From Verrucomicrobiota bacterium (GTDB lineage: Bacteria; Verrucomicrobiota; Verrucomicrobiia; Limisphaerales; JAXMHQ01), in assembly GCA_046346665.1 (NCBI GenBank), contig JAXMHQ010000001.1, forward strand, positions 131,896-195,895: a stretch of DNA of 64,000 bases, read 5' to 3'. Below, one piece after another: positions 4,425-62,709 of the stretch. Positions within the stretch are counted from its first letter, which is position 1. Each line of letters begins with the position of its first letter. A model generated the notes under the pieces. That model saw only the letters and a program-made list of their open reading frames with translations, searched no databases and was not told where the DNA came from. A program made the translations under genes and the position numbers.

Positions 4425-5348
4425 ATGAAGATTCCAGCTTTCGTCCTGGCCTTCTGGCTGGCGCTAACCGCCGCCGCCACAGCCCAGGTCTCCGTCGAAG
4501 TGGTGCTCGACCAGGAACATTTCCTCCCCGGCGAAACCATGAACGTCGCCGTCCGCATCATCAATCGATCCGGCCAAACCCTCCAACTGGGCGCCGACCC
4601 CGACTGGCTCACGTTCGCGGTGGAATCCAAGGACGGTTATGTGATCCTGAAAAACGGGGATGTGCCCGTCGTGCAACCCTTCACGCTGGAATCCTCCAAG
4701 CGCGCCACGAAGCATGTCGACCTGGCCCCCTACTTCAACCTCACCAAGGAAGGCGCCTACACGGTTTCCGCGACGGTGAACATCAAGGAATGGAACCGCC
4801 AGTTCACCAGCCAGGCGCGCATGTTTGAAATCATCAGGGCCGCTTCGCTGCGGGACATTGAAGTGGGCGTGCCGCGCCCCGCGGGTTCGACCAACTCCGA
4901 ACCCCAGCTCCGGAAATACAGCCTGCTCCAGGCCAATTACCTCCGAAAAACCCTCGTGCTCTACGTCCAGATCACCGACGGCGCCGGCAAACTCAAACGC
5001 GTCTTCCCCATCGGCCCCATGATCTCGTTCGGACAACCCGAACCGCAGATCGACAAAGACAGCAATCTCCACATTCTCTACCAGAGCGGCCCGCGCCTGT
5101 TCCGCTATTTCATCATCACGCCCGACGGCGAAGTCATCGGGCGCCAGACCTACGAATTCACAAACCGCCCGCGGTTGAAGGTGGGAGAGAATTCGCAGAT
5201 CTCTGTGGAAGGCGGACGCCGCCGGATCACGGACGAGGATATCCCGTCGCCCGACGCCGCCGATGCAGCCGGGACAAATTCGCCCGCCCTTCCGGCCACG
5301 AACGCCGCTCCGGCTTCGGCGCCGCCTCCCGCACCAGCCGTTAAATAA
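4425..5348 (+). CDS. secreted hypothetical protein (signal peptide, Pro/Ala-rich tail)
   Basis: MKIPAFVLAFWLALTAAATAQ signal peptide, GC3-rich coding frame, C-terminal low-complexity PALPATNAAPASAPPPAPA. No family recognised. Confidence 0.6.
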   Translation: MKIPAFVLAFWLALTAAATAQVSVEVVLDQEHFLPGETMNVAVRIINRSGQTLQLGADPDWLTFAVESKDGYVILKNGDVPVVQPFTLESSKRATKHVDLAPYFNLTKEGAYTVSATVNIKEWNRQFTSQARMFEIIRAASLRDIEVGVPRPAGSTNSEPQLRKYSLLQANYLRKTLVLYVQITDGAGKLKRVFPIGPMISFGQPEPQIDKDSNLHILYQSGPRLFRYFIITPDGEVIGRQTYEFTNRPRLKVGENSQISVEGGRRRITDEDIPSPDAADAAGTNSPALPATNAAPASAPPPAPAVK

Positions 5349-6205: not shown

Positions 6206-7258
6206 TCAACGCACCAGGTCGTCGAGCGATTGCACCCCGGCTTGCATCCGTTCGATAACCGGATTGGCCCGGGCCCGCGCATTGTCTTCCGTCTGGCCGG
6301 CAAAAGATTTCATCTTCACACAAATCGCCGCGATCGATTCGCCGTTCCGATCCGTCAACGGCGCCGTGATGGTCACCCACGATTTTCCGCGCGCCCAGTA
6401 ACGGGTGCCCCGCGCTATCACATCCTTCTCCACTTCCGTCCCAGCCCGCCCCACCTCGCCGGGATCGGTCGATGCGATCACCACCGGGGTTGACCCTGGC
6501 TTCTCAACGGTGTAAATCGCCAATCCCAGCAGGCGCGGAAACTCTTTCATCACCGAGGCGATCAGCCTCTGCGCCGGCGCTTCCTCGTGGGTGAACCGCA
6601 CCCGGGCATCGCGAAAATACGTCACCGCGTCCGACTTTGTCCAAAACCCGATCTTTCCCGCCTTCGGCCCCGCGCTGTCGATCAGCCTGATCAGGTCCTT
6701 GCCGTCCAGCGCACAGGTGATCCGGTTTCCCTCGCATTCAACCGACAACTCGTGCCATTCCCCCTTCGAAACGACGATGTCCGGGCCGATCGGCGGCTTC
6801 AATTCACCGTCCACCACCCGGTAACAGCGGAAATTCCCGCCCAACACACTGGCCCGCACCACGGAAAAATTCGATTCGTTCTGAAATCGGAACACCACGC
6901 CGCCCATCTGTTCCAGAGCGCCTCCCACACACTTGAACCGGGTCGTGAATTTGAAATCCCCGAAATCCTCGTTGGTGTAGACCAGGATCGGGTAGTGATC
7001 CGGCAACCCGCTGCGCGCCAACTGCGCCAGCACCGCCTGCTTGCTCACCACCATGGCTTTCGACGTCAACGGCGCCAGCAACGGCGCCACTTCGTCCAGG
7101 ATCACCTTCCAGTCCCCCGGCTTCCCCATCCCCGCCACCGCGCTCCGAAACCCCGGCGGCGGTTGATCCCCGGCTTCCTTGCCAAAATCAAACACCACGT
7201 CCGACCCGCGCACGCGCCCCACCGCCAGGACGGCTAAAATCACAAAAAACAATCGCAT
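6206..7258 (-). CDS. secreted hypothetical protein; N-terminal DUF1080/LamG-like domain plus C-terminal domain of unknown (possibly PDC/Cache-like) fold
   Basis: Signal peptide MRLFFVILAVLAVGRVRG. FGDFKFTTRFK...GGVVFRF...WHELSVECEGNRITCALDG...GKIGFWTKSDAVTYFRDARVRF resembles the DUF1080 pattern. The C-terminal 120 aa are unassigned. Confidence 0.65.
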   Translation of the reverse strand: MRLFFVILAVLAVGRVRGSDVVFDFGKEAGDQPPPGFRSAVAGMGKPGDWKVILDEVAPLLAPLTSKAMVVSKQAVLAQLARSGLPDHYPILVYTNEDFGDFKFTTRFKCVGGALEQMGGVVFRFQNESNFSVVRASVLGGNFRCYRVVDGELKPPIGPDIVVSKGEWHELSVECEGNRITCALDGKDLIRLIDSAGPKAGKIGFWTKSDAVTYFRDARVRFTHEEAPAQRLIASVMKEFPRLLGLAIYTVEKPGSTPVVIASTDPGEVGRAGTEVEKDVIARGTRYWARGKSWVTITAPLTDRNGESIAAICVKMKSFAGQTEDNARARANPVIERMQAGVQSLDDLVR

Positions 7259-8630: not shown

Positions 8631-9059
8631 TCACGTGGGCAAATCCTTGCCGGTCGTGGTCACCGTGAGCTTCCCGTGCTTCACCCCGCGCGCGGCAATC
8701 AACTGGTCCGCTATGTGCCGCACCGCCCCCGCCTGCCCGCGCACAATCAATACCTCCAGGCAATTGTGATGATCTAGGTGCACGTGGACCGTCGACAGAA
8801 TGATGTCGTGATGATCATGCTGGATCCCCGTCAGCGTCTCCTGCACATGCCGGGTGTGATGATCGTACACCAGCGTGATGGTCCCCGCGATCTCGCCCGC
8901 GAGCGACCGGTGCCGGTGCTCCACCAACTGGTCCCGGATCATGTCCGCGATGGCCAGCGACCGGTTGTCGTATCCCTTCTGGCCGACCATCCGGTCGAGT
9001 TGCTCCAGCAATTGCGGCGGCAGCGAAACGCTGAACCGCGTGACGGTGTCCTTTTTCAT
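8631..9059 (-). CDS. nikR: nickel-responsive transcriptional regulator NikR
   Basis: Ribbon-helix-helix N-terminus (RFSVSLPPQLLEQLDRMV..GYDNRSLAIADMIR) and His-rich C-terminal metal-binding domain (HHTRH..HDHHD..HVHLDHHNCLEV). Confidence 0.9.
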   Translation of the reverse strand: MKKDTVTRFSVSLPPQLLEQLDRMVGQKGYDNRSLAIADMIRDQLVEHRHRSLAGEIAGTITLVYDHHTRHVQETLTGIQHDHHDIILSTVHVHLDHHNCLEVLIVRGQAGAVRHIADQLIAARGVKHGKLTVTTTGKDLPT

Positions 9060-9207
9060 TTGAATTCAGCCGAAGCTTAAACGCCGCTGCCGCCGGAGTA
9101 AAGAACCCGTCAGTAGCAGCCGGATTGCAGCCGCCAATGTGAGTTGGCGGAGCCCCCGCTCTCACGATCACGGCTAAGGAACGTCCTTCGCAGGCTTGAC
9201 CCCGGCG

Positions 9208-9252
9208 CCGGAAATATTACCATCCAAATAAAACGTGTTACGGTAATTCCGG
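9208..9252. promoter_or_regulatory. candidate NikR operator / promoter region in the nikR-cbiM divergent gap
   Basis: Imperfect inverted repeat ccggaaATATTACC-N20-GGTAATtccgg in the only AT-rich patch of the gap, ~25 bp upstream of the cbiM start. It is analogous in layout to known NikR dyad operators but not identical to any I can recall. Confidence 0.35.
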
Positions 9253-9277
9253 CGCGGCGGTCTGCGGCGGAGATGTG

Positions 9278-10237
9278 ATGCATATACCCGATGGATTTCT
9301 GGATGGCCGGACGGCGGCAGTGACCGGGGTGGTGGCGGCCGGGGGCGTGGGGCTGGCGCTGCGCCAAGTCCGGCGCGAGCTGCCGCCGCGGCGCATTCCC
9401 CTCCTCGGGCTGGCGGCGGCATTTTTGTTCGCGGCACAGATGGTGAATTTCCCGGTGCTCGGCGGCACGTCGGGCCACCTGGTCGGCGGCGTGCTGGTCG
9501 CCGCCCTGCTCGGACCCGGCGCCGCCATCGTCGTCCTCACCACGGTTCTCATCGTTCAGTGTTTCCTGTTCAACGACGGCGGCCTCCTGGCGCTCGGGGC
9601 AAACATTCTCAATATGGGCATCATTGGCGCCGGCGCCGGCTACGCCATCTACCGGGCGGTCGCCGCCGTGCTGCCCGGCACGCGCGGCCGCGTCACCGCC
9701 GTCGCCTTCGCCGGATGGTGCTCGACCGTTCTGGCCGCCATGGCCTGCGCCGGTGAACTTGCCGCCTCCGGCACCGTCGCCTGGTCGTCCGCGTTCACCG
9801 CCATGACGGTTACCCATATGCTCATCGGCGTCGGCGAAGGCCTGATCGGGGCGCTCGTTTACCTCGCCGTTCTCCGCACCCGTCCGGAGCTGGCCGAAAC
9901 AGGCGCGAACGGCGGCACCGGGGCCAGCCGCGGCTGGCGGGACATGCTGCGCTACGGCCTGCCGGCGGCGCTCGGCATCGCGCTGTTCGTCGCCCCGTTC
10001 GCCTGTCCGTGGCCGGACGGACTCGAAAAAGCCGCGGAACGGCTTGGATTCGCGCACCGGGAAGCGGCGCCCGCGCTCGCATCGCCCGCCGCCAACTACC
10101 AGTTTCCTGGAATCCATTGGGCCCCTGGCGCCACCGCCCTCGCCGGTGCCTCCGGCTGCCTCGTGGTGCTCGCATTGTCCTGGATGTTGGGCCGCTGGCT
10201 GGCACCGGAACCGCGCGATTACCCTCAGAAACAGTAG
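9278..10237 (+). CDS. cbiM: ECF-type nickel/cobalt transporter substrate-capture subunit CbiM/NikM fused to a PDGLE (CbiN/NikL-like) domain
   Basis: Canonical MHIPDGFL N-terminus and CbiM transmembrane core. The C-terminal WPDGLEKAAERLGF is the PDGLE-domain motif. Confidence 0.9.
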   Translation: MHIPDGFLDGRTAAVTGVVAAGGVGLALRQVRRELPPRRIPLLGLAAAFLFAAQMVNFPVLGGTSGHLVGGVLVAALLGPGAAIVVLTTVLIVQCFLFNDGGLLALGANILNMGIIGAGAGYAIYRAVAAVLPGTRGRVTAVAFAGWCSTVLAAMACAGELAASGTVAWSSAFTAMTVTHMLIGVGEGLIGALVYLAVLRTRPELAETGANGGTGASRGWRDMLRYGLPAALGIALFVAPFACPWPDGLEKAAERLGFAHREAAPALASPAANYQFPGIHWAPGATALAGASGCLVVLALSWMLGRWLAPEPRDYPQKQ

Positions 10238-10265
10238 CCGCATCGTGAAACCGGCCAGCCAATTT

Positions 10266-10305
10266 CTGCAACCTTTGTGTCGTACGTACGACAGAAAGGT
10301 TGCAG
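10266..10305. repeat. 38-40 bp palindromic element, copy 1 (cbiM-cbiQ intercistronic gap)
   Basis: ctgcaacctttGtgtcgtac|gtacgacaGaaaggttgcag, a 17-19 bp stem with one central mismatch. Near-identical copy at 62672..62709. Confidence 0.9.
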
Positions 10306-10414
10306 CTTCTAAGACGGCGCTGGGAGCTATAGAAGGACTTCGAGGATCGATGGCCGTGTTGCGCAGCGATCCGGGCTTTCCGGCGACCGGCTGTCCTGTT
10401 ATTGATTCACGCCC

Positions 10415-11029
10415 GTGAGCGCAGCGATTCTTGGACATCAACATCGGCGGCCGGACAGCCCGGTGCATCGCCTGTCGCCCGGCCCCAAGCTGGCCGTGGC
10501 GGTGGTGATCCTGGCAGGCACGGTGACGCTGCCGCTGGATTGGAAAGGCTGGTTCCTGGGCGTGCCGCTCATGCTCGGGATCACGATTGCGTTCAGCCGG
10601 ATTTCACCGTGGTTCCTGCTCAAACGGCTGCTCCTGCTGTCCCCGTTCGTCCTCGGGGTCGCGGTCCTGAACGCGTTTCAGCCGGGCGCGCGCGGGAGCT
10701 GGCTCGGGGTCGCGGTCCGCAGCGGCCTGTGCCTGCTCACCGTCCTGCTGGTGTCCAACACCACCCCGTTCAGCGGGATTTTGCGGACACTCCGGACGGT
10801 CCGGGTTCCGGCGCTGCTGATCACAACGCTGGCATTGATGTACCGCTACCTGTTCGTGCTCGCCGAGGAATCCGAGCGCATGCGGCGCGCGCGGGCGAGC
10901 CGCACGTTCACCACCGGCCGACGGTTCCATTGGCAGACTCTCTCAACCGTGATTTCCCAGTTGTTCATCCGGGCGTCGGAACGGGCGGAACACATTTACG
11001 ACGCCATGTGCGCGAGGGGATGGCGATGA
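10415..11029 (+). CDS. cbiQ: ECF transporter transmembrane (T) component CbiQ/NikQ
   Basis: Multi-TM protein with the conserved ..YRYLFVL.EE.ERMRRARASR motif typical of CbiQ/EcfT. Non-ATG start as given by the ORF track. Confidence 0.8.
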   Translation: MSAAILGHQHRRPDSPVHRLSPGPKLAVAVVILAGTVTLPLDWKGWFLGVPLMLGITIAFSRISPWFLLKRLLLLSPFVLGVAVLNAFQPGARGSWLGVAVRSGLCLLTVLLVSNTTPFSGILRTLRTVRVPALLITTLALMYRYLFVLAEESERMRRARASRTFTTGRRFHWQTLSTVISQLFIRASERAEHIYDAMCARGWR

Positions 11030-11769
11030 ACCCGGCCATTGAAGTCGCGGAACTGCGCTACGGTTACCATGACGGAACCGAGGCGCTGCGCGGCGTGAGT
11101 TTCCGGATCGAGCCGGGCGAATGCGTGGCGTTGTTGGGTCCGAACGGCTCCGGAAAATCCACCCTGCTCCTCCATCTGAACGGCATCCTGCCCGAGAAAC
11201 CCGACGGGTCGGTCCGGATCCTGGGCCAGCCCGTTGCGCCCGGCACACTGGCCGCGGTCCGGCGCCAGGTGGGGTTGCTGTTCCAGGATCCGGACGACCA
11301 GTTGTTTTGTCCGACGGTGCAGGAGGACGTGGCGTTCGGGCCGCAACAGCTTGGGTTGAAGGAAGCGGAGATCGAGAGCCGCGTGAGCAAGGCGCTGGCG
11401 CAGGTCGGCCTGTTGGATTTCGGCCGGCGGGCGACGCACCATCTGAGCCACGGCGAAAAACGCCGCGCCTGCCTGGCGGGAGTGCTGGCGTGCGCCCCGG
11501 AAATTCTCGTGCTCGACGAGCCGACGAGCGACCTCGACCCGCGCGGGCGGCGCGAATTCAAGGCCTTGCTGCGGCACATTCCCGCCACCAAGCTGATTGC
11601 GACGCACGACCTGGAACTGGCGGTCGAAATGTGCCCGCGCGCGATCATCCTGGATCGCGGACGGGTGGTGGCGGACGGCGCGACGGCGCAACTGCTGGAC
11701 AACGAGGAACTGATGATGGAACACGGCCTGGAGCGGCCGCATATTCTGCGGCATAAGCATCCGCACTGA
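11020..11769 (+). CDS. cbiO: ECF transporter ATPase CbiO/NikO (ABC ATP-binding protein)
   Basis: Walker [11 protein letters not shown]-loop, signature LSHGEKRR, Walker B ILVLDEP. The start overlaps the cbiQ stop. Confidence 0.9.
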
Positions 11770-11775
11770 CAAGCG

Positions 11776-11953
11776 GTCGAGGGTCGAAAGCCGAGAGTCG
11801 AGGGCAGGAGCTGGCGGCGGGTCGACGCGATCGTTGGATTCCAGGCGTACTGACAAGAGGGGCCTCCGCGATTTTACAATCGCGGCTACCGGTCAGGGTT
11901 GAGAACCATCCGCCACGTCGGGCCCTCGACTCTGGACCTTCGACTCTCGACTC
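11776..11953. repeat. word-periodic inverted repeat (GTCGAGGG family) with ~115-nt loop
   Basis: Left gtcgagggtcgaaagccgagagtcgagggc. Right gccctcgactctggaccttcgactctcgactc. The loop has an inner hairpin ccgcgatt-ttac-aatcgcgg. Confidence 0.8.
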
Positions 11954-13562: not shown

Positions 13563-13576
13563 ACCGGTTTTTATCG

Positions 13577-13629
13577 GCAGATTTCGCAGATCAACGCAGA
13601 TTATCTGCGAAAACTGTGTAATCTGCGGA
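13577..13629. repeat. word-periodic hairpin (CGCAGAT family) after the guaB stop; terminator-like
   Basis: ggcagatttcgcagatcaacgcagat-t-atctgcgaaaactgtgtaatctgcgg. Same word family as 63461..63518. Confidence 0.7.
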
Positions 13630-13657
13630 CGCCTTTTCGACCCGGGAACGGTTGAAT

Positions 13658-15727: not shown

Positions 15728-15771
15728 GCCTTCGTTATACGTTTTCGCCCCAAAACTTAAAAGTATAAATC

Positions 15772-15850
15772 GTTAAAAGAGTTGAATGGTTGAATGGTTC
15801 AACCGTCCCGCGCGCCAGCTTTCAACCGTTCAACCGTTTAACAATTCAAC
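15772..15850. repeat. word-periodic hairpin (GTTGAATGGTT / AACCGTTCAAC family), copy upstream of the dUTPase gene
   Basis: gttgaatggttgaatggttcaaccg ... ctttcaaccgttcaaccgtttaacaattcaac. Confidence 0.75.
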
Positions 15851-15902
15851 GAACTGTCAGTTCCAGCTTGATTCCGGCGCCCAGTCCCGGACACTGGCGC
15901 GC

Positions 15903-16283: not shown

Positions 16284-16291
16284 GCCGGGCT

Positions 16292-16379
16292 GTTGAATCG
16301 TTGAACTGTTAAACGGTTAAATGGGAATGCCGGCGCCGCTATCCACACTTTTAACGTTTTAACCGTTTAACGATTCAAC
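16292..16379. repeat. word-periodic hairpin (same GTTGAA/GTTAAACGGTT family), copy downstream of the dUTPase gene
   Basis: gttgaatcgttgaactgttaaacggttaaa - 27-nt loop - ttttaacgttttaaccgtttaacgattcaac. Confidence 0.8.
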
Positions 16380-18068: not shown

Positions 18069-18080
18069 CGATATCGAGCG

Positions 18081-18170
18081 GTTAAATGGTTAAAAGGGTT
18101 GAATGGTTGAATGGTTGATTCGCGCGAGCGGGTCGACCATTCAACTTTTTTAACCGTTCAACCATTCAAC
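18081..18170. repeat. word-periodic hairpin (GTTGAATGGTT family) after the sigma-factor stop
   Basis: gttaaatggttaaaagggttgaatggttgaatggttga ... gaccattcaacttttttaaccgttcaaccattcaac. Confidence 0.8.
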
Positions 18171-23220: not shown

Positions 23221-23237
23221 CGAGAGCGGGAGGATCG

Positions 23238-23335
23238 TTGGATTAATGGATTAATGGATTGATGGATTACTGGATAAAGCGCGATCGCCGCGTGGAGCCA
23301 AAAATCCAATCATCCATTTATCCAATAATCCAGCA
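23238..23335. repeat. word-periodic hairpin (GGATTAATGGATT family) after the RND pump stop
   Basis: ttggattaatggattaatggattgatggattactggataaa - loop - aaaatccaatcatccatttatccaataatccagca. Confidence 0.8.
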
Positions 23336-31407: not shown

Positions 31408-31475
31408 TGGGGTGTTGGAGTAATGGAGTATTGGATTACCGGGACCCATCACTCCACCACTCCACCACCCCATTC
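31408..31475. repeat. word-periodic hairpin (GGAGTAATGGAGT / ACTCCACCACTCC family) after the Gfo/Idh/MocA stop
   Basis: tggggtgttggagtaatggagtattggattacc ... ccatcactccaccactccaccaccccattcc (imperfect). Confidence 0.65.
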
Positions 31476-33925: not shown

Positions 33926-34016
33926 CGCAGGTAGGGACGCCGCGCTGCGGCGTCCGCGGTCGGCGCAGCGCGCCGACCCTACCTTTTGCGGCTACGACAT
34001 TTCTTGAGCCGCTCTA
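33926..34016 (+). repeat. 91-bp structured repeat, copy 1 (100% identical to 55537..55627)
   Basis: cgcaggtagggacgccgcgctgcggcgtccgcggtcggcgcagcgcgccgaccctaccttttgcggctacgacatttcttgagccgctcta, compared base by base with the second copy. Confidence 0.95.
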
Positions 34017-46580: not shown

Positions 46581-46726
46581 TGCTCATCCAAAGTGCGCTT
46601 CGAAAAATCCTATCAGAACTGTTCGGCATGACTTCGAAAAAAGCTTAGCTTTAATTGCCCAAGGCTCGCCATTTTTTGACCAGTCGAGCGGTGAACCCCG
46701 GGAGGCGGGATGGGGAGCGAAGGGGC

Positions 46727-46802
46727 GGATTAATGGATGAATGGATTCCTGGATTCAGGATGCCCAATCCAACAATCCAATTATCCAGCGATCCAACAAT
46801 CC
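46727..46802. repeat. word-periodic hairpin (GGATTAATGGATT family) in the ccoI-glgC divergent gap
   Basis: ggattaatggatgaatggattcctggattcag ... caatccaacaatccaattatccagcgatccaacaatcc. Confidence 0.75.
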
Positions 46803-46898: not shown

Positions 46899-48206
46899 AT
46901 GTCACAGACAGGGCGGCAGACCATCAACACGAGCAACGTGCTTTCGGTGATCATGGGCGGCGGACAGGGCACGCGGCTGTTCCCGCTCACCAAGGAGCGG
47001 TCCAAGCCCGCGGTGCCGCTGGCGGGCAAATACCGGCTGGTCGACATCCCGATTTCCAACTGCATCAATTCCGGCCTGCGCCGCATCTACCTGCTCACCC
47101 AGTTCAATTCCGCCTCGCTGCACCGCCACATTTCCCAGTCGTACAAGTTCGATCATTTCACCGGCGGTTTCGTGGAGATCCTGGCGGCGGAGCAGACGAT
47201 GACGGACAATTCCTGGTACCAGGGCACGGCCGACGCGGTGCGGAAAAACCTGATTCATTTTCTGAACCACGATTTCGATTACCTGCTGATCCTGAGCGGC
47301 GACCAATTGTATCACATGGATTTCCGGCGGATTATCGCGCAGCACCAGGAGACGGGGGCGGACATCACCGTGGCGACCATCCCCGTGTCGCGGCGCGAAT
47401 CGGAATCGCTGGGCATCATGCAAATCGATGCCGAACGGCGGATCACGCGGTTTGTGGAGAAGCCGAAGGACCCGGCGGTGCAGGATTCCCTTCGGCTGAC
47501 GCCGGACTGGCTGGAGCGGCTGGGGATTGAGGCGGGCAAGGAGTGTTTCCTGGCGTCGATGGGCATCTACGTGTTCAACCGGGATGTTGTCCGCAAGCTC
47601 CTGGACAACAACCTGACGGATTTCGGCAAGCACATCATCCCGGGCGCGATCGGGACGCAGCGCGTGTTCTCGTTTGTGTTCCAGGGTTACTGGGAGGATA
47701 TCGGGACGATCCGGTCGTTTTTCGAAGCCAACCTCGACGTCACGTCGGAGCTGCCGCGGTTTAATTTCTTCGACATGGGCGCGCCGATCTTCAGCCGGCC
47801 GCGGTTCCTGCCGGGCTCAAAAATCAACAGCGCGCAGGTGGACCACGCGGTGATTTCCGACGGCTGCATCATCAATCATTCGCGCATTTCGCACAGCATC
47901 GTGGGCGTGCGCAGCATCGTGGGCGCCGGGACCGAACTGAACCGCGTCATCCTGCTGGGCTGCGATTATTATGAATCGGCCGAGTCGATCGCCGCCAATG
48001 AACAGGCGGGCCGGCCGCGGATCGGGGTGGGGATGAACACGCGCATTGAAAACGCGATCATCGACAAAAATGCGCGCATCGGGGACAACGTGACCATTTC
48101 GCCCGCCGGCAAGCCCGAACAGGTGGATCACCCGCTGTATTACATCCGCGACGGCATTGTAATCATCCCCAAGAGCGGCGTCGTCCCGCACGGCACGGTC
48201 ATTTGA
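46899..48206 (+). CDS. glgC: glucose-1-phosphate adenylyltransferase
   Basis: VIMGGGQGTRLFPLTKERSKPAVPLAGKYRLVDIPISNCINSG, WYQGTADAV, and the left-handed beta-helix C-terminus. ATG 46899; upstream ORF-track residues are encoded by a repeat. Confidence 0.95.
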   Translation: MSQTGRQTINTSNVLSVIMGGGQGTRLFPLTKERSKPAVPLAGKYRLVDIPISNCINSGLRRIYLLTQFNSASLHRHISQSYKFDHFTGGFVEILAAEQTMTDNSWYQGTADAVRKNLIHFLNHDFDYLLILSGDQLYHMDFRRIIAQHQETGADITVATIPVSRRESESLGIMQIDAERRITRFVEKPKDPAVQDSLRLTPDWLERLGIEAGKECFLASMGIYVFNRDVVRKLLDNNLTDFGKHIIPGAIGTQRVFSFVFQGYWEDIGTIRSFFEANLDVTSELPRFNFFDMGAPIFSRPRFLPGSKINSAQVDHAVISDGCIINHSRISHSIVGVRSIVGAGTELNRVILLGCDYYESAESIAANEQAGRPRIGVGMNTRIENAIIDKNARIGDNVTISPAGKPEQVDHPLYYIRDGIVIIPKSGVVPHGTVI

Positions 48207-48216
48207 CCGCGAAGTT

Positions 48217-48247
48217 CTTTTCACCACGAAGGCGCGAAGCGCACGAA
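48217..48247 (+). repeat. 31-bp direct repeat, copy 1 (orphan left arm, CACGAAG family) just after the glgC stop
   Basis: ttttcaccacgaaggcgcgaagcgcacgaag is 29/31 identical to 48799..48829. Confidence 0.9.
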
Positions 48248-48255
48248 GTTCAGAA

Positions 48256-48687: not shown

Positions 48688-48798
48688 GCTATTCCCTTTC
48701 CTTTATGAACCACGAGAATTCGAGATTCAACCTTGCATGAGAGAATAAAGCCGCGGGTAGGACAATGGCAGTCCAACCTCACAGAAACAGGGAAGACA

Positions 48799-48911
48799 TT
48801 TTTACCACGCAGGCGCGAAGCGCACGAAGATTTGTTCAGGGATAGCCTAACAAGAAAAACTTCGCGCTCTTCGCGCCTTCGTGGTGAACAAAGTCTTCGC
48901 CCTTCGTGGTC
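48799..48911. repeat. 31-bp direct repeat copy 2 plus its complementary arm (intact CACGAAG-family hairpin abutting the CBM48 gene stop)
   Basis: tttttaccacgcaggcgcgaagcgcacgaag - 30-nt loop - cttcgcgctcttcgcgccttcgtggtgaa, followed by a partial extra word gtcttcgcccttcgtggtc. Confidence 0.85.
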
Positions 48912-50512: not shown

Positions 50513-50626
50513 AAAGTGTCGTTCTGTTTCACGCGCCGCACGGGCGCATATCCGGAACATTTTAGGCGGACCCGGTCAAAAGGAAACAAAAAACACAGGA
50601 CTCACCTCGAAGCAGGGAAGGATTTA

Positions 50627-50881
50627 TCAACCACGAAGACACGAAGAACACGAAGGTTTTGGGGGGGCAGATTGTTTCGATGTTGGGACCGGATGAGGCC
50701 GGCCCTCCAATCGATCCGCTATCGACGATGCAAAGTGAAATGCCTGGAAAAGACCAATCGCGGAAATCAGCCGCAGACTCAGCAAGCGCGCAAAATTCGA
50801 TGTGCACGGAATGAACGAGCAGCCTGGTCCGGCTTTCCCCCGAAAAAGACTTCGCGTTCTCCGCGTCTTCGTGGTGAAAAA
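50627..50881. repeat. word-periodic inverted repeat (CACGAAG family) with ~168-nt lower-GC loop, between the sigma-54 activator gene and fba
   Basis: Left tcaaccacgaagacacgaagaacacgaaggttttggggggg. Right cccccgaaaaagacttcgcgttctccgcgtcttcgtggtgaaaaa. Confidence 0.8.
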
Positions 50882-52364: not shown

Positions 52365-52439
52365 CGGCCGACATTAACGGAATTTCTTCCCGGCGGGCAA
52401 GCTTTTCAACCGCGCGACGCAACAACACGAACCGGCTCT

Positions 52440-52466
52440 CACCACGAAGACACGAAGGACGCGAAG
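52440..52466. repeat. orphan left-type arm of the CACGAAG family upstream of the sigma-54 activator gene
   Basis: caccacgaagacacgaaggacgcgaag. No complementary arm lies nearby. It is complementary (~22/27) to the right arm at 50850..50876 on the other side of the gene. Confidence 0.75.
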
Positions 52467-52554: not shown

Positions 52555-52588
52555 CCATTCCGCACTCCGCGTTCCGCATTCCGCATTT
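52555..52588. repeat. orphan right-type arm of the AATGCGG family abutting the pilC stop
   Basis: ccattccgcactccgcgttccgcattccgcattt. About 29/31 identical to the reverse complement of 55418..55450, 2.8 kb away. Confidence 0.8.
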
Positions 52589-53798
52589 AGCGCGCCTGGT
52601 TGATGATGTCCGCCATTTTAAAGATGGGCAGGAACATACAGATCACCATGCCGCCGATGACGATGCCGAGGCCGACGATCAGGATGGGCTCGATCAGCGA
52701 GGTCAGGCCGGACAGGGTGGTTTCGATTTCCTCGTCCAGGAAGTCGGAGATGCGTTCCAGCATGTTGTCGATCTTGCCGGTTTGTTCGCCGGCCGTGATC
52801 ATGCGGATGATCATGCTGGGGAAAATGGGATGCTTGCTGAGCGCGGTGGAAATGCTTTCGCCGCGTTCGATGTCGGCGGAGGCGTCCTTGATGGCCTTCT
52901 CCATCACCACGTTGCCGACAGTCTGGGAAACGATCTGCAGCACTTCGAGGATCGGCACGCCGGAGCGGATCAGCGACGCCAGGGTGCGGGTGAATCGTGC
53001 AAGGCAGATCTTGTGGGCAATCATGCCGAAGATCGGGAGCTTGATGCGGCGCGAATCCCAGAACCAGCGGCCGGGCTTGGTCTTGATGAAGGCGAACCAG
53101 CCGTAAACGATGCCGGCGCCGGCGAGAACAAACAGGAGGATGAAGCGCTTGACGATTTCGCTCAGGTCGATGAGGAACTGGGTCGGACCGGGCAGCTTGG
53201 CGCCGAATCCCTGGTAAATTTCACCGAACACCGGCACGACCTTGATGAGCAGGAACGTGGTGATCAGGATAGCCACGATGGTGACGACCGTGGGATACAT
53301 CATCGCCGATTTGACCTTCTTGCGCAGGCGCGCAGCGTTTTCGAGGTAAATGGCCAGGCGCGCCATGATTTCGGCGAGCAAACCGCCCTTTTCACCGGCG
53401 GACACCATGGAATAATACAGGCGGTCGAAAACCTTCGGATGCTTCTGCAGCGCCTCGGAAAAGCTGTCGCCGGCTTCCACGCGGGCGCAAATGTCGCGAA
53501 TGACATCGCGCATCGCCTTGTTCGTGGTCTGTTCGGCGAGCGCCTGGAGCGACTGAACCATCGCAAGACCGGCGTCGATCATCGTGGCGAGTTGCCGGGT
53601 GAAAATGACCTGGTCGGCAAGGCTGACCCTGCCGCCGCTGGTGCGTCCTTTCTTGCCGACCTTTTCCTGGATGGAAACCACCAGGAGATTGCGGTTGAGC
53701 AGCGCCGTGATGGCCGCCTGCTCGGTGGCCGCTTCGACGGAGCTGCGGATCTCTCGGCCGGAGGCCGTCTCCCGCGCAATATACAAGTATGAAGGCAT
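52587..53798 (-). CDS. pilC: type II secretion system F-family / type IV pilus platform protein (PilC/GspF-like)
   Basis: 403 aa with duplicated T2SSF domains (LATMIDAGL..., LASLIRSGVPI...), a 3-TM layout, and the typical Y.A.....G N-terminus. Confidence 0.9.
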   Translation of the reverse strand: MPSYLYIARETASGREIRSSVEAATEQAAITALLNRNLLVVSIQEKVGKKGRTSGGRVSLADQVIFTRQLATMIDAGLAMVQSLQALAEQTTNKAMRDVIRDICARVEAGDSFSEALQKHPKVFDRLYYSMVSAGEKGGLLAEIMARLAIYLENAARLRKKVKSAMMYPTVVTIVAILITTFLLIKVVPVFGEIYQGFGAKLPGPTQFLIDLSEIVKRFILLFVLAGAGIVYGWFAFIKTKPGRWFWDSRRIKLPIFGMIAHKICLARFTRTLASLIRSGVPILEVLQIVSQTVGNVVMEKAIKDASADIERGESISTALSKHPIFPSMIIRMITAGEQTGKIDNMLERISDFLDEEIETTLSGLTSLIEPILIVGLGIVIGGMVICMFLPIFKMADIINQAR

Positions 53799-54108
53799 AG
53801 CTTATCGAAACGGCCTCCCGCAGGTTCGCAACCTGGTTGTTCAGTTCAGGACGGCTCGTTCGCGGCATGTTGAGCAGGGTTTATTCCACTCATTCACAAA
53901 ACCTCATCCAAGCTCCCGCCACGGCGCGTTTTGCGGTTTTTCAGTGGCGCTCCCGGCTGCTTCTGCCCCAAGCCCGGACAGTTCTGTACCGGTCCGCGGG
54001 AAGAATCTTGTTGTCAAAGCCCCCGGTTTGGCTTTGAATCGGATCCATCAACCGGGGCCGGCCCGCCCGGCGGGTAACTGTTCAGGAACCGGGACGGATC
54101 CAGCCCCT

Positions 54109-54124
54109 TGGCGCAGAAGATGCC
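54109..54124 (+). promoter_or_regulatory. candidate sigma-54 (-24/-12) promoter for porin paralog 1
   Basis: TGGCGCagaagATGCC. The GG and GC dinucleotides sit at the consensus spacing of TGGCAC-N5-TTGCW, 16-31 nt upstream of the possible starts. Confidence 0.35.
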
Positions 54125-54139
54125 CATTATAAGTTTATT

Positions 54140-55417
54140 ATGTCGGAGGAACGCATGAGAGTGAACAAATGGACGCTGGGCCTCGCCGCCGCGGGCGTCG
54201 TCAGCCTGGGATCCGCGGTCCAGGCCGAGGAAACTTCAAACACCGTCCTCACCGGCCTGTCCTCAACCACCTTGAGCGGCTACGTCGATACGTCCGCCAT
54301 GTGGAACTTCGGCACCGGCAACGCCAACCCCGTCCCGGTCCGGTTCAACCAGGGCAAACAGGACGGATTCAACCTCAACGTCGTCCAGCTCTCCCTCGCC
54401 CGGCCCCTGTCCGAAAATAACTGGGCCGCCGGATACCGCGTCGACCTCTGGATGGGACCCGACGCCGCCCAGCTCGACACTGCCAGTCTCCAGTCCGGTT
54501 TCACCCAGGGCGATTTAGCCATCCGCCAGGCCTACGTCGCCCTCCGCACCCCCCTCGGCAACGACATCGAATGGAAGATCGGCGTTTTTGACAGCATCAT
54601 CGGCTACGAATCCGTCGCCTCCCCGAGCGATCCCAATTACACCCGCTCCTACGGCAACACCCTCGAACCCACCTCGAACACGGGCCTGCTGGCGTCCTAC
54701 CGCTTCTGCGAGGAATTCAACATCTCCGCCGGCATCGCCAATACCGTCGGACCTAACATCAACCAGCGCGCATTCAACACCCCCGGCGTCCCGCCGCTCA
54801 CCAATCCCCAGGCCGAGTCCTTCAAGACTTACATGGGATCGTTCACGGTGGTCGCCCCCGACAGCCTCGGATTCCTGGCGGGATCCAGCCTCTACGGCGG
54901 CATCGTGAATGGATTCAATGACGCGGTGAACGAAACCGCGTATCAGAACAACAGCACCAGCTATTACCTCGGCGCCACCTTCGTCACCCCCGTCAACGGG
55001 CTCCGCTTCGGCACCGCCTTCGACTGGCTCCATATCCATAACTGGTCCGAAGTCCTCGCCTCCGCCCCCGTCCCGCTTTTCGGCGGCGACGGCAATAGCT
55101 GGTCCCTGGGACTCTACGGCTCCCTGCAGGCTACGGAAGCCTTCAGCATCCATCTCCGCGGCGAATACGTGAACGACAACGCCGGATTCTTCTTCGGCCC
55201 CTTCGGCGAAGACCAGACCGGCAACGTCGTGGAACGCGCCCAGGTGTTCGAAGTGACCACCACCGCCCAATACGATCTCTGGAAAAACGTGATCAGCCGC
55301 GCGGAATTCCGCTGGGATCACATCGAACACGGCAACGCCTTCGGCGGCACCATCCCCGGCTCCCCCATCTACGCCAACGCCTACATGCTGGCCGCAAATA
55401 TCATCTACCAGTTCTGA
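54140..55417 (+). CDS. outer-membrane beta-barrel porin (BBP2/OmpL-like), paralog 1
   Basis: Signal peptide ending AVQA, alternating beta-strand pattern, C-terminal aromatic (IIYQF). About 45% identical by eye to 55804..57075. Alternative start at ATG 54155. Confidence 0.75.
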   Translation: MSEERMRVNKWTLGLAAAGVVSLGSAVQAEETSNTVLTGLSSTTLSGYVDTSAMWNFGTGNANPVPVRFNQGKQDGFNLNVVQLSLARPLSENNWAAGYRVDLWMGPDAAQLDTASLQSGFTQGDLAIRQAYVALRTPLGNDIEWKIGVFDSIIGYESVASPSDPNYTRSYGNTLEPTSNTGLLASYRFCEEFNISAGIANTVGPNINQRAFNTPGVPPLTNPQAESFKTYMGSFTVVAPDSLGFLAGSSLYGGIVNGFNDAVNETAYQNNSTSYYLGATFVTPVNGLRFGTAFDWLHIHNWSEVLASAPVPLFGGDGNSWSLGLYGSLQATEAFSIHLRGEYVNDNAGFFFGPFGEDQTGNVVERAQVFEVTTTAQYDLWKNVISRAEFRWDHIEHGNAFGGTIPGSPIYANAYMLAANIIYQF

Positions 55418-55698
55418 GGAATGCGGAATGCGGAGTGCGGAGTGCGGAATCCTGGCGGAATGCGGGGTTCACGGATATAACCATCCTTTGATCCATTGAT
55501 GCCGCTCCATTATAGCGGTTTAACATAAACCGTAGCCGCAGGTAGGGACGCCGCGCTGCGGCGTCCGCGGTCGGCGCAGCGCGCCGACCCTACCTTTTGC
55601 GGCTACGACATTTCTTGAGCCGCTCTAAGGACAAGAACGAGCAGGGCTCCCCTGTTGCGCCGCCAGGATTCCGCACTCCGCACTCCGCACTCCGCGTT
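55418..55698. repeat. word-periodic inverted repeat (GAATGCGG/GAGTGCGG family) abutting the porin-1 stop, with a ~200-nt loop carrying the 91-bp repeat
   Basis: Left ggaatgcggaatgcggagtgcggagtgcggaatcctggcg. Right cgccaggattccgcactccgcactccgcactccgcgtt. Confidence 0.85.
55537..55627 (+). repeat. 91-bp structured repeat, copy 2 (fuller copy; outer stem extends to 55531..55600)
   Basis: Identical to 33926..34016. Here cgtagccgca (55531-55540) additionally pairs with tgcggctacg downstream of the ggtaggg...ccctacc stem. Confidence 0.95.
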
Positions 55699-55803: not shown

Positions 55804-57075
55804 TTAGAACATGTAGATGATGTTCAGAGTCAGAGTTTCGGCGTTGGCCTTGCTCGGATTGCCAGGGGTCGCCGGAGTCGTGCTGAAATCGGCGGCCACC
55901 GTGCCACCGAAGGGCTTGTCATCCGTCAAGCAATGATCCCAGCGGAATTCCACGCGGCTGATCACGTTCTTCCACAGGGAATAATCCAGCGTTTCGGTGA
56001 GCGACATGAGCTGGTTGCAGCTCCCCTGCGAGACGTAGCCGAACGAGCCGTTCTCGCCGTTGGCATAGGAGCCGTTGCTGCCCCAACCGAAGTCGAGGCG
56101 GCTGCCGCTCTTCAGTTTCTCGGTGATCTGCCACATCAAGTAGGTGCCCAGGGCATTCGCGTAGGAGTTCTGGAACACGCTGCTGGTGGTCAGGTCGTAG
56201 GCCACACCCAGGCTCAGGCCCGTGATCGGCAACGGCGTCGTGCCGCCGATATACAGGTTGCGCTGGTTGTAATCCGTGCCGCCGCTCGAAGCGCCGCCGC
56301 CCGACACGTTCGGAATCACGGCCGGGAAATGACCGCCGTCCGTCCAGCCGGCCGAGAGCGTCGCGCCCTTCATGAACCCGAAACTCTCGGGAGCCGTGAA
56401 CGAAGCCATCACCAGGTAGGCCTTCTTGGATTCGACACCGTTCTTCACGTCGACCTGGTTGTTGTAACCGGCCTGGTTGCCGATGCCCGCCTGCAGGGCG
56501 AAGCAGTCAGTCACCTTGTAGGTGCCCGCAATGCCCGTGTGCGCGGAGGATTCAATGTAGAACCCGTAGGAACGGCTGAAATTCGGATCCTTGTAGGTGT
56601 CGTAGGATTCGTAGCCGTTGAACGTTCCGAATTGGCCCATGTGCAGCTCCAGGCCGTTGCCAATCGGGACGCGCAGGTTCACATACGCCTCGTTAAAGGC
56701 GAAATCCGTCGTGCCGGACGAGGCAAAAATCCCCGTGCCGCGCTGCGCAGCGCCGGGCCCCATCAGCATCTGGAAATGATAACCCGAGGCCCACTGGGAA
56801 TCGTCCAGCGGCTTGTCCAGCGTCAGGCTCACCACGTCAAGGTTGAAGCCGTCCATCATGGTCGGACCATCATACACGCGGCCCGGCATGTTCGCGTTGC
56901 CGGTTCCCATGTTCCAGATCGCGGAGGTATCCACATAACCGCTCAGCGTCGTGGCGGAAAGGGATGTCAGCACGGAATTCGGTTTCGCAGCCGGAGCCTC
57001 ATCAGCCTGTGCCAAAGCAGGCGCACTGATCAGGCCGGCGCTCAACAGGACTTGTGTCCATTTACTCATGTTCAT
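55804..57075 (-). CDS. outer-membrane beta-barrel porin (BBP2/OmpL-like), paralog 2
   Basis: Signal peptide ending ALAQA. Shared blocks with paralog 1 (TTLSGYVDTSA.WN.GTGNAN, DGFNL.VV.L.L..PL, LWKNVISR.EFRWDH). C-terminal IIYMF. Confidence 0.75.
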   Translation of the reverse strand: MNMSKWTQVLLSAGLISAPALAQADEAPAAKPNSVLTSLSATTLSGYVDTSAIWNMGTGNANMPGRVYDGPTMMDGFNLDVVSLTLDKPLDDSQWASGYHFQMLMGPGAAQRGTGIFASSGTTDFAFNEAYVNLRVPIGNGLELHMGQFGTFNGYESYDTYKDPNFSRSYGFYIESSAHTGIAGTYKVTDCFALQAGIGNQAGYNNQVDVKNGVESKKAYLVMASFTAPESFGFMKGATLSAGWTDGGHFPAVIPNVSGGGASSGGTDYNQRNLYIGGTTPLPITGLSLGVAYDLTTSSVFQNSYANALGTYLMWQITEKLKSGSRLDFGWGSNGSYANGENGSFGYVSQGSCNQLMSLTETLDYSLWKNVISRVEFRWDHCLTDDKPFGGTVAADFSTTPATPGNPSKANAETLTLNIIYMF

Positions 57076-57160
57076 AGTTCTTGTATAGGTTTGGTTTCTA
57101 GTTCTTCTCTAACTTCTAGCTTCGTGCGTCAACCGCACAACTCGGTTCGCCGCGCCACCC

Positions 57161-57269: not shown

Positions 57270-57448
57270 CGTTTTGACCCGCAATTTTTCCGTGCCCACA
57301 AGCCCCACGACTCCACACCTCAACCCGACCCGCGCTGTTCAGGTTTGACCGCGATGCGCAGAATGCAACTGGCGATTTTCCCATCGCCCGCCCGCACGCG
57401 CGCTCCATTCCCCTGCAAATGCTGCATCCGACCCGCGCCGGCTCCCCG

Positions 57449-57464
57449 TGGCATATCGGGTGCT
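57449..57464 (+). promoter_or_regulatory. candidate sigma-54 (-24/-12) promoter for urtABCDE
   Basis: TGGCATatcggGTGCT with consensus GG/GC spacing, ~125 nt upstream of urtA ATG 57589. Confidence 0.45.
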
Positions 57465-57588
57465 GAAGCGCCGCTGGACCAGCCCGGCAACACGAACACA
57501 GTCCTCGTGCGCCCCGATGAAACGCGGGAACGCCGGCCGATCCGAGAAACCAAACGAACCCAGAACTGAACTGAACGCAAACGGAACC

Positions 57589-58884
57589 ATGAAAACCAAA
57601 CCCTCCGCTTTTAAGAAATTACTGCTCCTGGCAAGCCTAACGGCCGGGCTCGCCCTCTCATCCCAGGCCGCAGAAACCATCAAGGTCGGCATCCTCCACT
57701 CGCTCAGCGGCACCATGGCCATCAGCGAAACTTCCCTCCGCGATGTCCTCCTCTTCGCCTTCGACGAAATCAACAAGTCCGGCGGCATCAAGGTCGACGG
57801 CAAAAGCTACATGATCGAACCCGTCATCGTCGACGGCGCCTCGAACTGGCCCCTCTTCGCCGAAAAAGCCAAACAATTGCTCGAACAGGACAAGGTCGCC
57901 GTCGTCTTCGGATGCTGGACGTCCGTGAGCCGCAAATCCGTCCTCCCCGTGTTCGAAAAAGACAACGGACTCCTCTTCTACCCGGTCCAGTATGAAGGCG
58001 AGGAGTTGTCGAAAAACATCTTCTACACCGCCGAAGCCGTCAACCAGCAGGCCACCCCAGCCATCGATTACCTGCTCGCCAACGGCAAAAAGAAATTCTA
58101 CCTGATCGGCACCGATTACGTCTATCCCCAGACCACCAACCTGATCCTCTACAAATACCTCCTCCTCCACGGCATTCCCCTCGAAAACATCGGCGGCGGA
58201 CTGCGCAAGGACGAATCCGGCAAGGTCATCTCCGCCGGCAAATACACCCCCTTCGGCCACACCGATTACCAGCAGATTGTCGCCGAAATCAAACAGTTCT
58301 CCGCCGGCGGCGACGCCTGCGTGATCAATACCATCAACGGCGATTCCAACGTCCCCTTCTTCAAGGAAATCGCCGCCGCCGGCCTCACCCCCGCCGAATG
58401 CCCCGTCGTCTCCTTCAGCCTCGCCGAAGATGAACTCCGCGCCCTGCCCACCAAGGACCTCGTCGGCGAACTCGGCTGCTGGACCTACTTCATGTCCCTC
58501 CCCGGCGCCGAAAACAAAGCCTTCCTCAAAGACTGGGACGCCTGGCTCAAAGCCCAGAAATACCCCGGCGTGATCAAGGAAAAACGCGCCGTCGACAGCC
58601 CCATGGTCCTCTCCTATAACGGCGTTTACCTCTGGAAAAATGCCGTCGAAAAAGCCAACTCCTTCAACGTCGACAAAGTCCGCGAAACCCTCGAGTCCGG
58701 CACCATCTCCTTCGACGGCCCCGGCGGCAAAAACACGATGCAGAAAAACCATCACACCACCAAGAATGTCTACATCGGCGAGACCCGCGCCAACGGCCAG
58801 TTCAAAATCCTCAAGTCCTACGACAACATCCCCGGCGAACCCTTCCTTCTGAAGGGCCTCGACGAACAATTGGCCGCGAAATAA
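57589..58884 (+). CDS. urtA: urea ABC transporter substrate-binding protein
   Basis: Signal peptide, then [34 protein letters not shown] blocks characteristic of UrtA. The start is at ATG 57589. Confidence 0.9.
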
Positions 58885-58957
58885 GGCCCCCCACATTCCC
58901 CATCTCGGTTAACCGGGAGGGGTGGACCTGATGACTCCACCCCTCCCTATTCCGCGA

Positions 58958-60709: not shown

Positions 60710-60711
60710 TC

Positions 60712-61890
60712 ATGATGACCCGATTTTCAAGCCGGTCCGAATGGTGGGGCGTGGGCGCGGCCCTCGCCGTGCTGCTGGTCCTCCTGCCCGCGCTCAACGC
60801 GTTCACACCTGAAACCAGCTTCCTCCACGTCAGCAATTTCACCATCAATCTCTACGGCAAATACCTCTGCTACGCCCTGCTCGCCATCAGCGTCGATTTG
60901 CTCTGGGGTTACACCGGCCTGCTCAGCCTCGGCCAGGCCCTCTTCTTCACCCTCGGCGGCTACATGATCGGCATGCACCTCATGCGCCTGATCGGCAACC
61001 TCGGCCAGTATCACCAGGAAATCCCCGATTTCCTCGTCTTTCTCGGCTGGAACACCCTGCCCACCTTCTGGCGCCCGTTCAGCAGCCTCGCCTTCGCCCT
61101 GCTCATGGCCATCCTCCTCCCCGGCACCCTCGCCCTCGCCTTCGGCTACCTCGCGTTCCGTTCCCGCATCCGCGGCGTCTACTTTTCCATCCTCACCCAG
61201 GCCCTCACCTACGGCGCCTGCCTCCTGTTCTTCCGCAACAGCCTCCTCATGGGCGGCAATAACGGGTTCACCGATTTCAAATTCCTCCTCGGCCACGACC
61301 TCCGCTCCCCCGGCACCCAGCGCGCCCTCTACATGGCCACCGTCATCGCCCTGCTCGCCGTCTACCTCGGCTGCCGCTGGCTCAGCCGGTCCAAGTTCGG
61401 CCTCGTCCAACGCGCCATTCGCGACAGCGAAAACCGCGTCCTGTTCAGCGGCTACGCCGCCGGCAATTTCAAACTGTTCGTCTTCGTCCTCGCCGCCATC
61501 ATCGCCTCCATCGGCGGCGTGCTCTATGTCCCCCAGGTCGGCATCATCAACCCCGGCGAAATGCAGCCCGACAAATCCCTCGAAGCCGTCGTCTGGGTCG
61601 CCGTCGGCGGCCGCGCCACCCTGCTCGGCCCCATCCTCGGCGCGTTCGGCGTCAATGCCCTCAAAAGCTGGGCCACCCGCGCCTACCCCGACCTCTGGCT
61701 CCTGTTCCTCGGAGGACTCTTCGTCCTGGTCACCCTCTTCATGCCCAAAGGAATCGCCGGCATCCCCGCCCAGATCCACAGCCTCAGCCAACGATTCATG
61801 GCCCGGCGCCGCACCACCCCCGATCCCAAAAGCCCCCCCGCCCTCGTCACACCCGCCGCCAACCCCGGCACCCCCGTCGAAACCGAATGA
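60712..61890 (+). CDS. urtC: urea ABC transporter permease UrtC
   Basis: LivM-type permease (LLWGYTGLLSLGQALFF..GGY). The ATG lies 2 nt after the urtB stop. Confidence 0.9.
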   Translation: MMTRFSSRSEWWGVGAALAVLLVLLPALNAFTPETSFLHVSNFTINLYGKYLCYALLAISVDLLWGYTGLLSLGQALFFTLGGYMIGMHLMRLIGNLGQYHQEIPDFLVFLGWNTLPTFWRPFSSLAFALLMAILLPGTLALAFGYLAFRSRIRGVYFSILTQALTYGACLLFFRNSLLMGGNNGFTDFKFLLGHDLRSPGTQRALYMATVIALLAVYLGCRWLSRSKFGLVQRAIRDSENRVLFSGYAAGNFKLFVFVLAAIIASIGGVLYVPQVGIINPGEMQPDKSLEAVVWVAVGGRATLLGPILGAFGVNALKSWATRAYPDLWLLFLGGLFVLVTLFMPKGIAGIPAQIHSLSQRFMARRRTTPDPKSPPALVTPAANPGTPVETE

Positions 61891-62645: not shown

Positions 62646-62671
62646 CCCCCCGCGCAACCTCGTTCCCCGGC

Positions 62672-62709
62672 TACAACCTTTTTGTCGTACGTACGACACA
62701 AAGGTTGCA
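62672..62709. repeat. 38-bp palindromic element, copy 2 (urtD-urtE intercistronic gap)
   Basis: tacaaccttttTtgtcgtac|gtacgacaCaaaggttgca. Same core as 10266..10305, with the mismatch at the same stem position. Confidence 0.9.

Follow-up and report, generated by a model that had tools for sequence, protein, structure and literature searches.

Two near-identical palindromes lying between cistrons of a nickel and a urea ABC-transporter operon are probably copies of a dispersed, REP-like repeat family that occurs in a few Verrucomicrobiota-type lineages and was inserted at both places in this lineage, and not parts of a nickel/urea regulon. Each copy would sit as a conserved tip on a longer, imperfect hairpin whose base is specific to that copy.

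Two palindrome copies within transporter operons

In the window, by which we mean the whole 64-kb stretch of DNA analysed, copy 1 (10266-10305, no strand assigned) consists of two 20-nt arms, CTGCAACCTTTGTGTCGTAC|GTACGACAGAAAGGTTGCAG, which meet with a spacer of 0, and its one mismatch, G.G, directly flanks the 16-nt core TGTCGTACGTACGACA at 10278-10293. Copy 2 (62672-62709, likewise unstranded), TACAACCTTTTTGTCGTAC|GTACGACACAAAGGTTGCA, has its core at 62683-62698; at the stem position where copy 1 is mismatched it has T.C, and a further mismatch lies close to its outer end. The stems comprise 17-20 pairs over 38-40 nt with 1-2 mismatches, and contain a T-tract on the 5′ side and an A-tract on the 3′ side. 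The two copies align best when one is inverted, and then differ at 2 of 38 nt, both differences being transitions. The initial annotation had described a near-identical palindrome at both sites, with a single mismatch at the same stem position (G.G in one copy, T.C in the other), and both observations were confirmed. A degenerate 34-mer, allowing up to three mismatches, retrieved just these two sites from the window and nothing from 100 shuffles. The core and its half-site are confined to the same two sites within the window, no further copy was found there by the covariance model of the family, and the two palindromes are the longest without a spacer that the window holds. That the source is a MAG is the sole point in favour of an assembly artefact or a chance similarity, and the probability of either is close to nil: none of the 100 shuffles matched, independent assemblies carry the same element, and the reading frames on either side of each copy are correct.

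As RNA, copy 1 is predicted to fold at -26.7 kcal/mol (z = -6.95) and copy 2 at -17.6 kcal/mol (z = -6.8), and the covariance model of the family scores them at 54.4 and 50.5 bits, respectively. No sigma-70-like promoter was found at either copy, and a consensus scan of both sites returned no U-tract terminator, the flanks being devoid of T runs. Rfam 15 gave no match in the whole window at gathering thresholds, and noise only (E above 2) around copy 1 at permissive E-values. The exact core had no match in viral contigs and the 40-mer none in plasmids by blastn; a full-text literature search with the core and half-site strings returned just primers or unrelated text. Among the approximately 45 genes of the window, neither a transposase domain nor a RAYT was found.

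Copy 1 lies in the cbi operon next to nikR (8631-9065, - strand; Pfam NikR_C, E = 2.1e-34), which together with the divergent promoter region spans 8631-9274. Because nikR lies divergently upstream of cbiM, the ECF transporter was identified as a NikR-associated nickel transporter; NikR is the expected nickel-responsive regulator of the cbiM operon. In the relative L033, nikR is found instead downstream of cbiO. On the + strand, cbiM/nikM-PDGLE (9275-10237; Pfam CbiM plus PDGLE, its product being 100% identical to a protein from a Verrucomicrobiota MAG at NCBI) is followed by the spacer that houses copy 1 (10238-10414), by cbiQ (10415-11029; full-length identity of 63% to CbiQ of L031, with the start checked against the orthologue), by cbiO (11026-11769; ABC_tran domain) and then by guaB. 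The urea transporter cluster, urtA-E, occupies 57448-63434. Here copy 2 lies in the spacer at 62646-62738 (+), between urtD (61887-62645, +; Pfam ABC_tran plus BCA_ABC_TP_C, with an identical database protein named UrtD) and urtE (62739-63434, +; Pfam ABC_tran), whose ATGCTGAAC start, with the ATG at 62739, aligns with that of L027. The gene context given initially, between cbiM and cbiQ and between urtD and urtE, was right, and the gaps are long as claimed, although their exact lengths are 177 and 93 nt and not 178 and 94 bp.

The accompanying statement that the other urt junctions are tight fails at urtA-urtB, which measures approximately 75 nt and has its own GC-rich hairpin at 58915-58947. 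This hairpin, GGGAGGGGTGGA...TCCACCCCTCCC, is kept in the orthologue L030 (~7030-7062), where T-rich sequence follows it, and could serve as an attenuator or stabiliser between the binding-protein and permease genes. UrtB itself (58960-60709; L030 7071-8822) has a long N-terminal extension with HEAT repeats and, judged by eye, an apparent signal peptide; the extension is kept in the relative. Just upstream of urtA, and also in the orthologous loci L029 and L030, are two genes for BBP2/OmpL-like beta-barrel porins (54038-55417, +; 55804-57108, -), which may be outer-membrane partners of the urea transporter.

Absence of the element from orthologous junctions

UrtD orthologues that are 91, 89 and 88% identical have urtD-urtE gaps of 19, 5 and 5 nt (L027, L028 and L029, respectively) without the element, and an 87%-identical orthologue has a different, 307-nt insert at this junction. 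Similarly, cbiM and cbiQ overlap or abut in loci of CbiM orthologues with 70-73% identity (L031/L032 and L033), and the 177-nt spacer is missing from the orthologous operons; one CbiM orthologue locus is syntenic through guaB, exbBD and the dUTPase gene, and one CbiM orthologue has a different, 88-nt insert between cbiM and cbiQ. The family covariance model found no copy across approximately 100 kb from these relatives, and the conservation in orthologous operons that the initial annotation put forward as a check was found for neither urt nor cbi. Because the orthologous urtD-urtE and cbiM-cbiQ junctions are without the element, we infer that both copies in the window are lineage-specific insertions. 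Presence/absence polymorphism was seen at three loci in all, the third being a site downstream of an epimerase gene (at least 90% identical) in another lineage.

The inserted segments measure approximately 75, 105 and 177 nt, exceeding the shared 36-40 bp. When the insertions were compared by short-word blastn and by alignment in both orientations, no longer common unit and no shared flanks were detected, and the palindrome alone was common to them. No target-site duplication was identified at the L001 (see below), urt or cbi insertion sites, and neither element ends nor a terminal inverted repeat consensus could be defined; the ends are copy-specific.

These comparisons bear directly on the function first proposed for the palindromes, in which a bulged hairpin would serve as a dedicated post-transcriptional control that co-regulates nickel and urea uptake through the stabilities of the cistrons. 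The intercistronic position of both copies in transporter operons, the common mismatch position, the high stability of the hairpins and the nickel link of the cbi transporter, with nikR adjoining, are all compatible with such a control, but the absence of the element from the closest orthologous urt and cbi operons largely refutes it. UrtD and UrtE, both ATPases, and likewise CbiM and CbiQ, are subunits expected to be needed in matched amounts, and because the two junctions part such subunits, an adaptive design is unlikely on general knowledge of ABC transporters. Further points against it are that nikR is already present, that the window contains no urease genes among its approximately 45 genes, and that the urt junction analogous to the REP-bearing malE-malF junction of E. 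coli is urtA-urtB, which is already filled by its own conserved hairpin. Together with the mismatch and the neighbouring genes of the other copies, described below, these observations make a shared nickel-urease control point very improbable.

A palindrome family in Verrucomicrobiota-type lineages

When one genome from each of 185,579 species was scanned for the exact pattern, six sites were returned, all in the MAG of Verrucomicrobia bacterium REEB50 (JAGWYX01), where the six exact-core copies lie on 6 contigs and have the consensus GACGAACTTTTGTCGTACGTACGACAAAAGTTCGTC; the density in the source is 2 copies in 64 kb. In addition, a metagenome scan with 18 fixed bases returned 20 loci, 11 of which have extended complementary arms and represent ten distinct sequences (L008 and L013 being the same). 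The arms on other contigs read ...CCAACTTT-core-AAAGTTGG..., ...CGAAACTT-core-AAGTTTCG... and ...CACACTTC-core-GAAGTGTG..., and the tip is common to contigs of 42-67% GC.

The other nine metagenome loci, mostly of low GC and without complementary arms, were set aside as chance or unrelated matches, their number being consistent with a rough, order-of-magnitude estimate of the chance matches expected for 18 fixed bases; some of them are probably archaeal, given adjacent FtsZ and archaeal-type PEP carboxylase genes. On one such low-GC contig, L016, the 16-mer at 4544-4559 is accompanied by the variant TGTCCTACGTAGGACA at 4644-4659, 100 nt apart and upstream of ftsZ. Its genes for FtsZ and an archaeal-type PEP carboxylase make an archaeal origin of this contig probable, and its two sites, which resemble paired operator sites, are probably unrelated to the Verrucomicrobiota repeat.

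Conserved tip and copy-specific base of the hairpins

In an alignment of 18 copies, the outer eleven pairs (11/18) had all changed on both sides, and the inner seven pairs were invariant, an invariance that is partly an artefact of searching with the exact core. Of the cells of the alignment, 90% were paired, as against 37-46% when the partner was slid, and the covariation score was unmatched by any shuffle. The length of the stem varies from 14 to 34 bp across copies, and the tip, (C)TTTTGTCGTACGTACGACAAAA(G), is a perfect palindrome. Counts of G.U versus A.C mismatches relative to the direction of transcription were too few to indicate a constraint on the RNA strand.

Among the 16 other copies, 15 have T-A and the remaining one C-G at the stem position where the window copies are mismatched; since this position pairs in all 16, the supposed bulge is private to this genome. 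Furthermore, with one window copy inverted with respect to the other, the mismatches would differ between the two mRNAs (G.G and U.C). The initial annotation had read the mismatch as a recognised bulge and had proposed its conservation in other copies as a check; neither the reading nor the conservation is upheld by these data, which also argue against the nickel-urease control discussed above. Most simply, the shared mismatch was inherited from one progenitor copy.

Each inserted segment folds end to end. The insert of approximately 105 nt in an oligopeptidase gene forms one long, imperfectly paired hairpin, at the tip of which lies the palindrome. The entire cbiM-cbiQ spacer adopts a closed fold (-72 kcal/mol, z = -3.67) with the closing stem CGTGAA...TTCACG, and in the urtD-urtE spacer (fold z = -4.1), an outer stem CCGCGCA...TGCGCGG (~62650-62725) lengthens the hairpin across most of the inserted DNA. 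Because just the palindrome is common to the insertions and the segments nevertheless fold end to end, the tip is conserved, and the base is copy-specific yet self-complementary. Such a base could have originated by snap-back extension of the palindrome or by re-symmetrisation during copying, both of which are guesses. It is conceivable, though we consider it unlikely, that these copies represent hairpin insertion elements of an undescribed kind, whose architecture is inverted: the tip TTTTGTCGTACGTACGACAAAA would be recognised, the base would be re-created for each copy and entry into coding sequence in frame would be possible. If so, a mobilising or maintenance activity would act on the hairpin tip, for example through a nick in or close to the centre and subsequent snap-back synthesis, or else the tip might be bound by a host protein that is conserved.

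Genomic positions of the copies

Neighbouring genes were assigned at 15 sites by codon-position GC and Pfam, and the copies were found in 8 tandem gaps, 5 convergent gaps, 1 divergent gap and 1 gene. In the tandem gaps, the element is usually much closer to the upstream stop codon, typically at a distance of 0-80 nt. This positional bias, like the abundance of the family, rests on approximately 16 independent copies, all of which were retrieved by the exact core. The published position distribution of REPs equals the pattern seen for this palindrome (PMC3733652). The REP-like nature suggested initially is well founded in this respect, the element being a short, very stable palindrome located past stop codons in operons or between convergent genes. 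The adjoining genes encode a prolyl oligopeptidase, a rhodanese, a helicase, TPR proteins, a sulfatase-modifying enzyme, an M1 peptidase, a Kelch protein, a bile-acid/sodium symporter, an epimerase, a GH2 enzyme, a PaaX-like regulator, TatD, the ribonucleotide reductase beta subunit and rpsO, and have no function in common. Thus, of the expectation that copies would be biased to intercistronic sites in transporter operons, the preference for sites past stop codons stood and the link to transporters did not, because the genes concerned are unrelated.

The intragenic copy lies in REEB50 (L001, 7792-7896), within a prolyl oligopeptidase gene, where it forms part of a 35-aa in-frame insertion between AAEWL and the catalytic GxSNGG motif, eight residues ahead of the catalytic serine motif. 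This insertion is absent from all prolyl oligopeptidases in the PDB and from seven database homologues. As read from the sequence, the palindrome contains a stop codon in no frame.

The bias to sites just past stop codons and between convergent genes is what would be expected of a 3′-end RNA element selected by the host, either a terminator that lacks a U-tract and may work in both directions, or a hairpin whose tip is bound by a conserved RNA-binding protein or an RNase, repeatedly recruited to gene ends. The combination of a conserved tip with a variable paired base is the pattern of RNA hairpins recognised by proteins, the hairpins are stable on both strands, and conservation of the tip across lineages of differing GC could reflect a host function. 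We nevertheless regard such recruitment as a minor possibility: close relatives are without the element at the same sites, one copy lies in frame inside a coding sequence, there is no U-tract and no Rfam match, and a strong terminator at urtD-urtE or cbiM-cbiQ would entail the loss of essential subunits. The G.U and A.C mismatches mentioned above were also too few to show that the RNA strand is constrained.

The only gene flanked by two copies encodes a PaaX-like regulator of 260 aa. It is located within a glycoside hydrolase cluster, with one copy of the palindrome in the divergent promoter region, 30 nt upstream, and the other just after the stop codon, a layout shared by three contigs that belong to one lineage (L024 1750-2656, L035 9920-10831 and L036). 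No PaaX-like homologue was found near any other copy. The arrangement raises the question of whether the palindrome is a duplex operator, that is, a perfect 16-22-bp palindrome (TGTCG-N6-CGACA plus T/A tracts) for a dimeric protein, for example a PaaX-like one, with the dispersed copies forming its regulon or serving as decoys. A palindrome without a spacer is symmetric at the centre too, which suits a dimer on double-stranded DNA, and the core is invariant with varying flanks. This core invariance, however, is partly an artefact of searching with the exact core, and the flanks covary as base pairs without a half-site consensus. Moreover, tandem or convergent gaps past stop codons account for 13 of the 15 copies, a further copy is intragenic, the orthologous operons are without the site, and the adjacency to the PaaX-like gene, which is not repeated near the remaining copies, may be due to chance. 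An operator role is accordingly doubtful enough to be judged quite improbable.

Other repeats in the window

Inverted arrays of tandem 7-8-mers occur in many intergenic regions of the window (11776-11951, 15758-15858, 16291-16379, 18075-18170, 23232-23284, 31409-31445, 46719-46763, 48206-48250, 48787-48888, 50613-50880, 52424-52466, 52556-52607, 55400-55458 and 55660-55698) and are also found in relatives (L030 10769-11075; L034 10946-11033). Their units, which differ by family, include GGATTAAT, GGTTGAAT/TTCAACCG, CACGAAG, AATGCGG and GTCGAGGG. In relatives, such arrays occupy the junctions at which the palindrome is found in the window, with AAGTTCCA at urtD-urtE of L030 and ATTTACGA at cbiM-cbiQ of L034. 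They look like a class of intergenic repeats that form hairpins, widespread in these Verrucomicrobiota and possibly not yet described.

A second repeat of approximately 70 nt, with CGCAGAT/ATCTGCG heptamers, occurs at 13571-13639 and 63452-63520 in inverted orientation (~81% identical). It sits 10-20 nt past the stop codons of guaB, at the end of the nik-guaB cluster, and of urtE, at the end of the urt operon, so that the nik and urt loci have two different repeat families in common. There is also an exact 91-nt direct repeat at 33926-34016 and 55537-55627, 21.6 kb apart, which holds a GC-rich hairpin (CGCGCTGCGGCGTCCGCGGTCGGCGCAGCGCG).

Predicted consequences for the host operons

If the palindromes are dispersed repeats, as we consider probable, both window copies would have been inserted within this lineage, one inverted with respect to the other, and would derive from a progenitor with the mismatch already in place. 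The junctions on which they would have landed are those that in relatives are tight or overlapping (urtD-urtE) or overlapping or abutting (cbiM-cbiQ). The polycistronic mRNA would thereby have gained an 18-20-bp hairpin without a U-tract, 26-29 nt past the upstream stop codon, and this hairpin would be expected to break the translational coupling of the flanking cistrons. REPs of E. coli block 3′ exonucleases, terminate transcription in part or serve as RNase III sites, and the hairpins described here would probably also act in one of these ways. As a result of such action and of the lost coupling, cbiQO and urtE may be expressed differently from the cistrons upstream of them. Any such effect on expression would be incidental to a repeat that is itself selfish or neutral, without a designed regulon.

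The analysis documents a small family of palindromic repeats in Verrucomicrobiota, with a conserved tip, a variable base and one in-frame insertion into a peptidase. The REPs reported so far from Verrucomicrobiota are the GTAG-type of Opitutus terrae alone (PMC3733652). A palindrome common to two operons is, in the present case, better read as repeat biology, and the idea of a nickel-urease riboregulator is unsupported. Should the element alter the expression of downstream cistrons, this would be an instance of repeats remodelling operons that are translationally coupled in relatives.

Comparison with known systems

Several classes of protein-binding site were considered and rejected. An operator for a regulator of the palindrome's own operon (NikR, or a nitrogen or CRP-family regulator) would be expected upstream, whereas the palindrome lies between cistrons and is missing from orthologues; a NikR-box reading of the core was ruled out on spacing, position and absence from orthologues. 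The NtcA site has the consensus GTA-N8-TAC, which the core does not fit by inspection. With the 16-bp parS site of ParB (TGTTNCACGTGAAACA), the core agrees at only 10 of 16 positions, and the covarying arms and the stop-codon bias are unlike parS, of which no canonical example was found in the window. Intrinsic terminators are similar in that a stable hairpin lies just past stop codons, often between convergent genes, but here there is no 3′ U-tract, and the T- and A-tracts are within the stem and in the wrong order.

Among mobile and dispersed elements, the Rickettsia palindromic elements (RPE) offer a parallel to the L001 prolyl oligopeptidase copy, as palindromic repeats that enter a protein gene in frame and free of stop codons. 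In contrast to RPE, one copy here is intragenic and most are intergenic, the shared unit is approximately 36 bp and not 100-150 bp, and there is no sequence relationship. MITEs and REPINs resemble the inserts of 75-177 nt, which fold end to end as long imperfect hairpins and show presence/absence polymorphism. However, those elements conserve the termini at the base of the foldback, whereas in this family it is the tip that is conserved, on a copy-specific base. A MITE assignment was rejected because terminal inverted repeats and a target-site duplication were not found, just the central 36-40 bp being common.

The likeness is most extensive with the REP/BIME elements of Proteobacteria (including that of E. 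coli malE-malF, and the GTAG- and CGTC-tagged superfamilies; PMC3733652). As in REPs (about 20-40 bp), the elements are short imperfect palindromes, here of 36-40 bp and present in several copies, with a stable stem-loop that is expected to be transcribed. They are extragenic and follow closely on the preceding ORF where gaps are tandem or convergent, being seldom found in divergent ones, with occasional intragenic copies and a patchy distribution among related genomes. Unlike REPs, the family has no consistent GTAG or 5′-CGTC tag, its arms ending in GACG.../...CGTC, TGCA.../...TGCA or CCAAC; the palindrome is perfect through its centre, without a distinct loop, and no RAYT gene was seen in the window. 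REPs are usually species-specific, whereas this tip is conserved across lineages of differing GC, and copies are apparently few (2 within the 64-kb window, 6 with the exact core in REEB50). Because the tag is inconsistent, we place the family among small dispersed palindromic repeats and not among canonical REPs.
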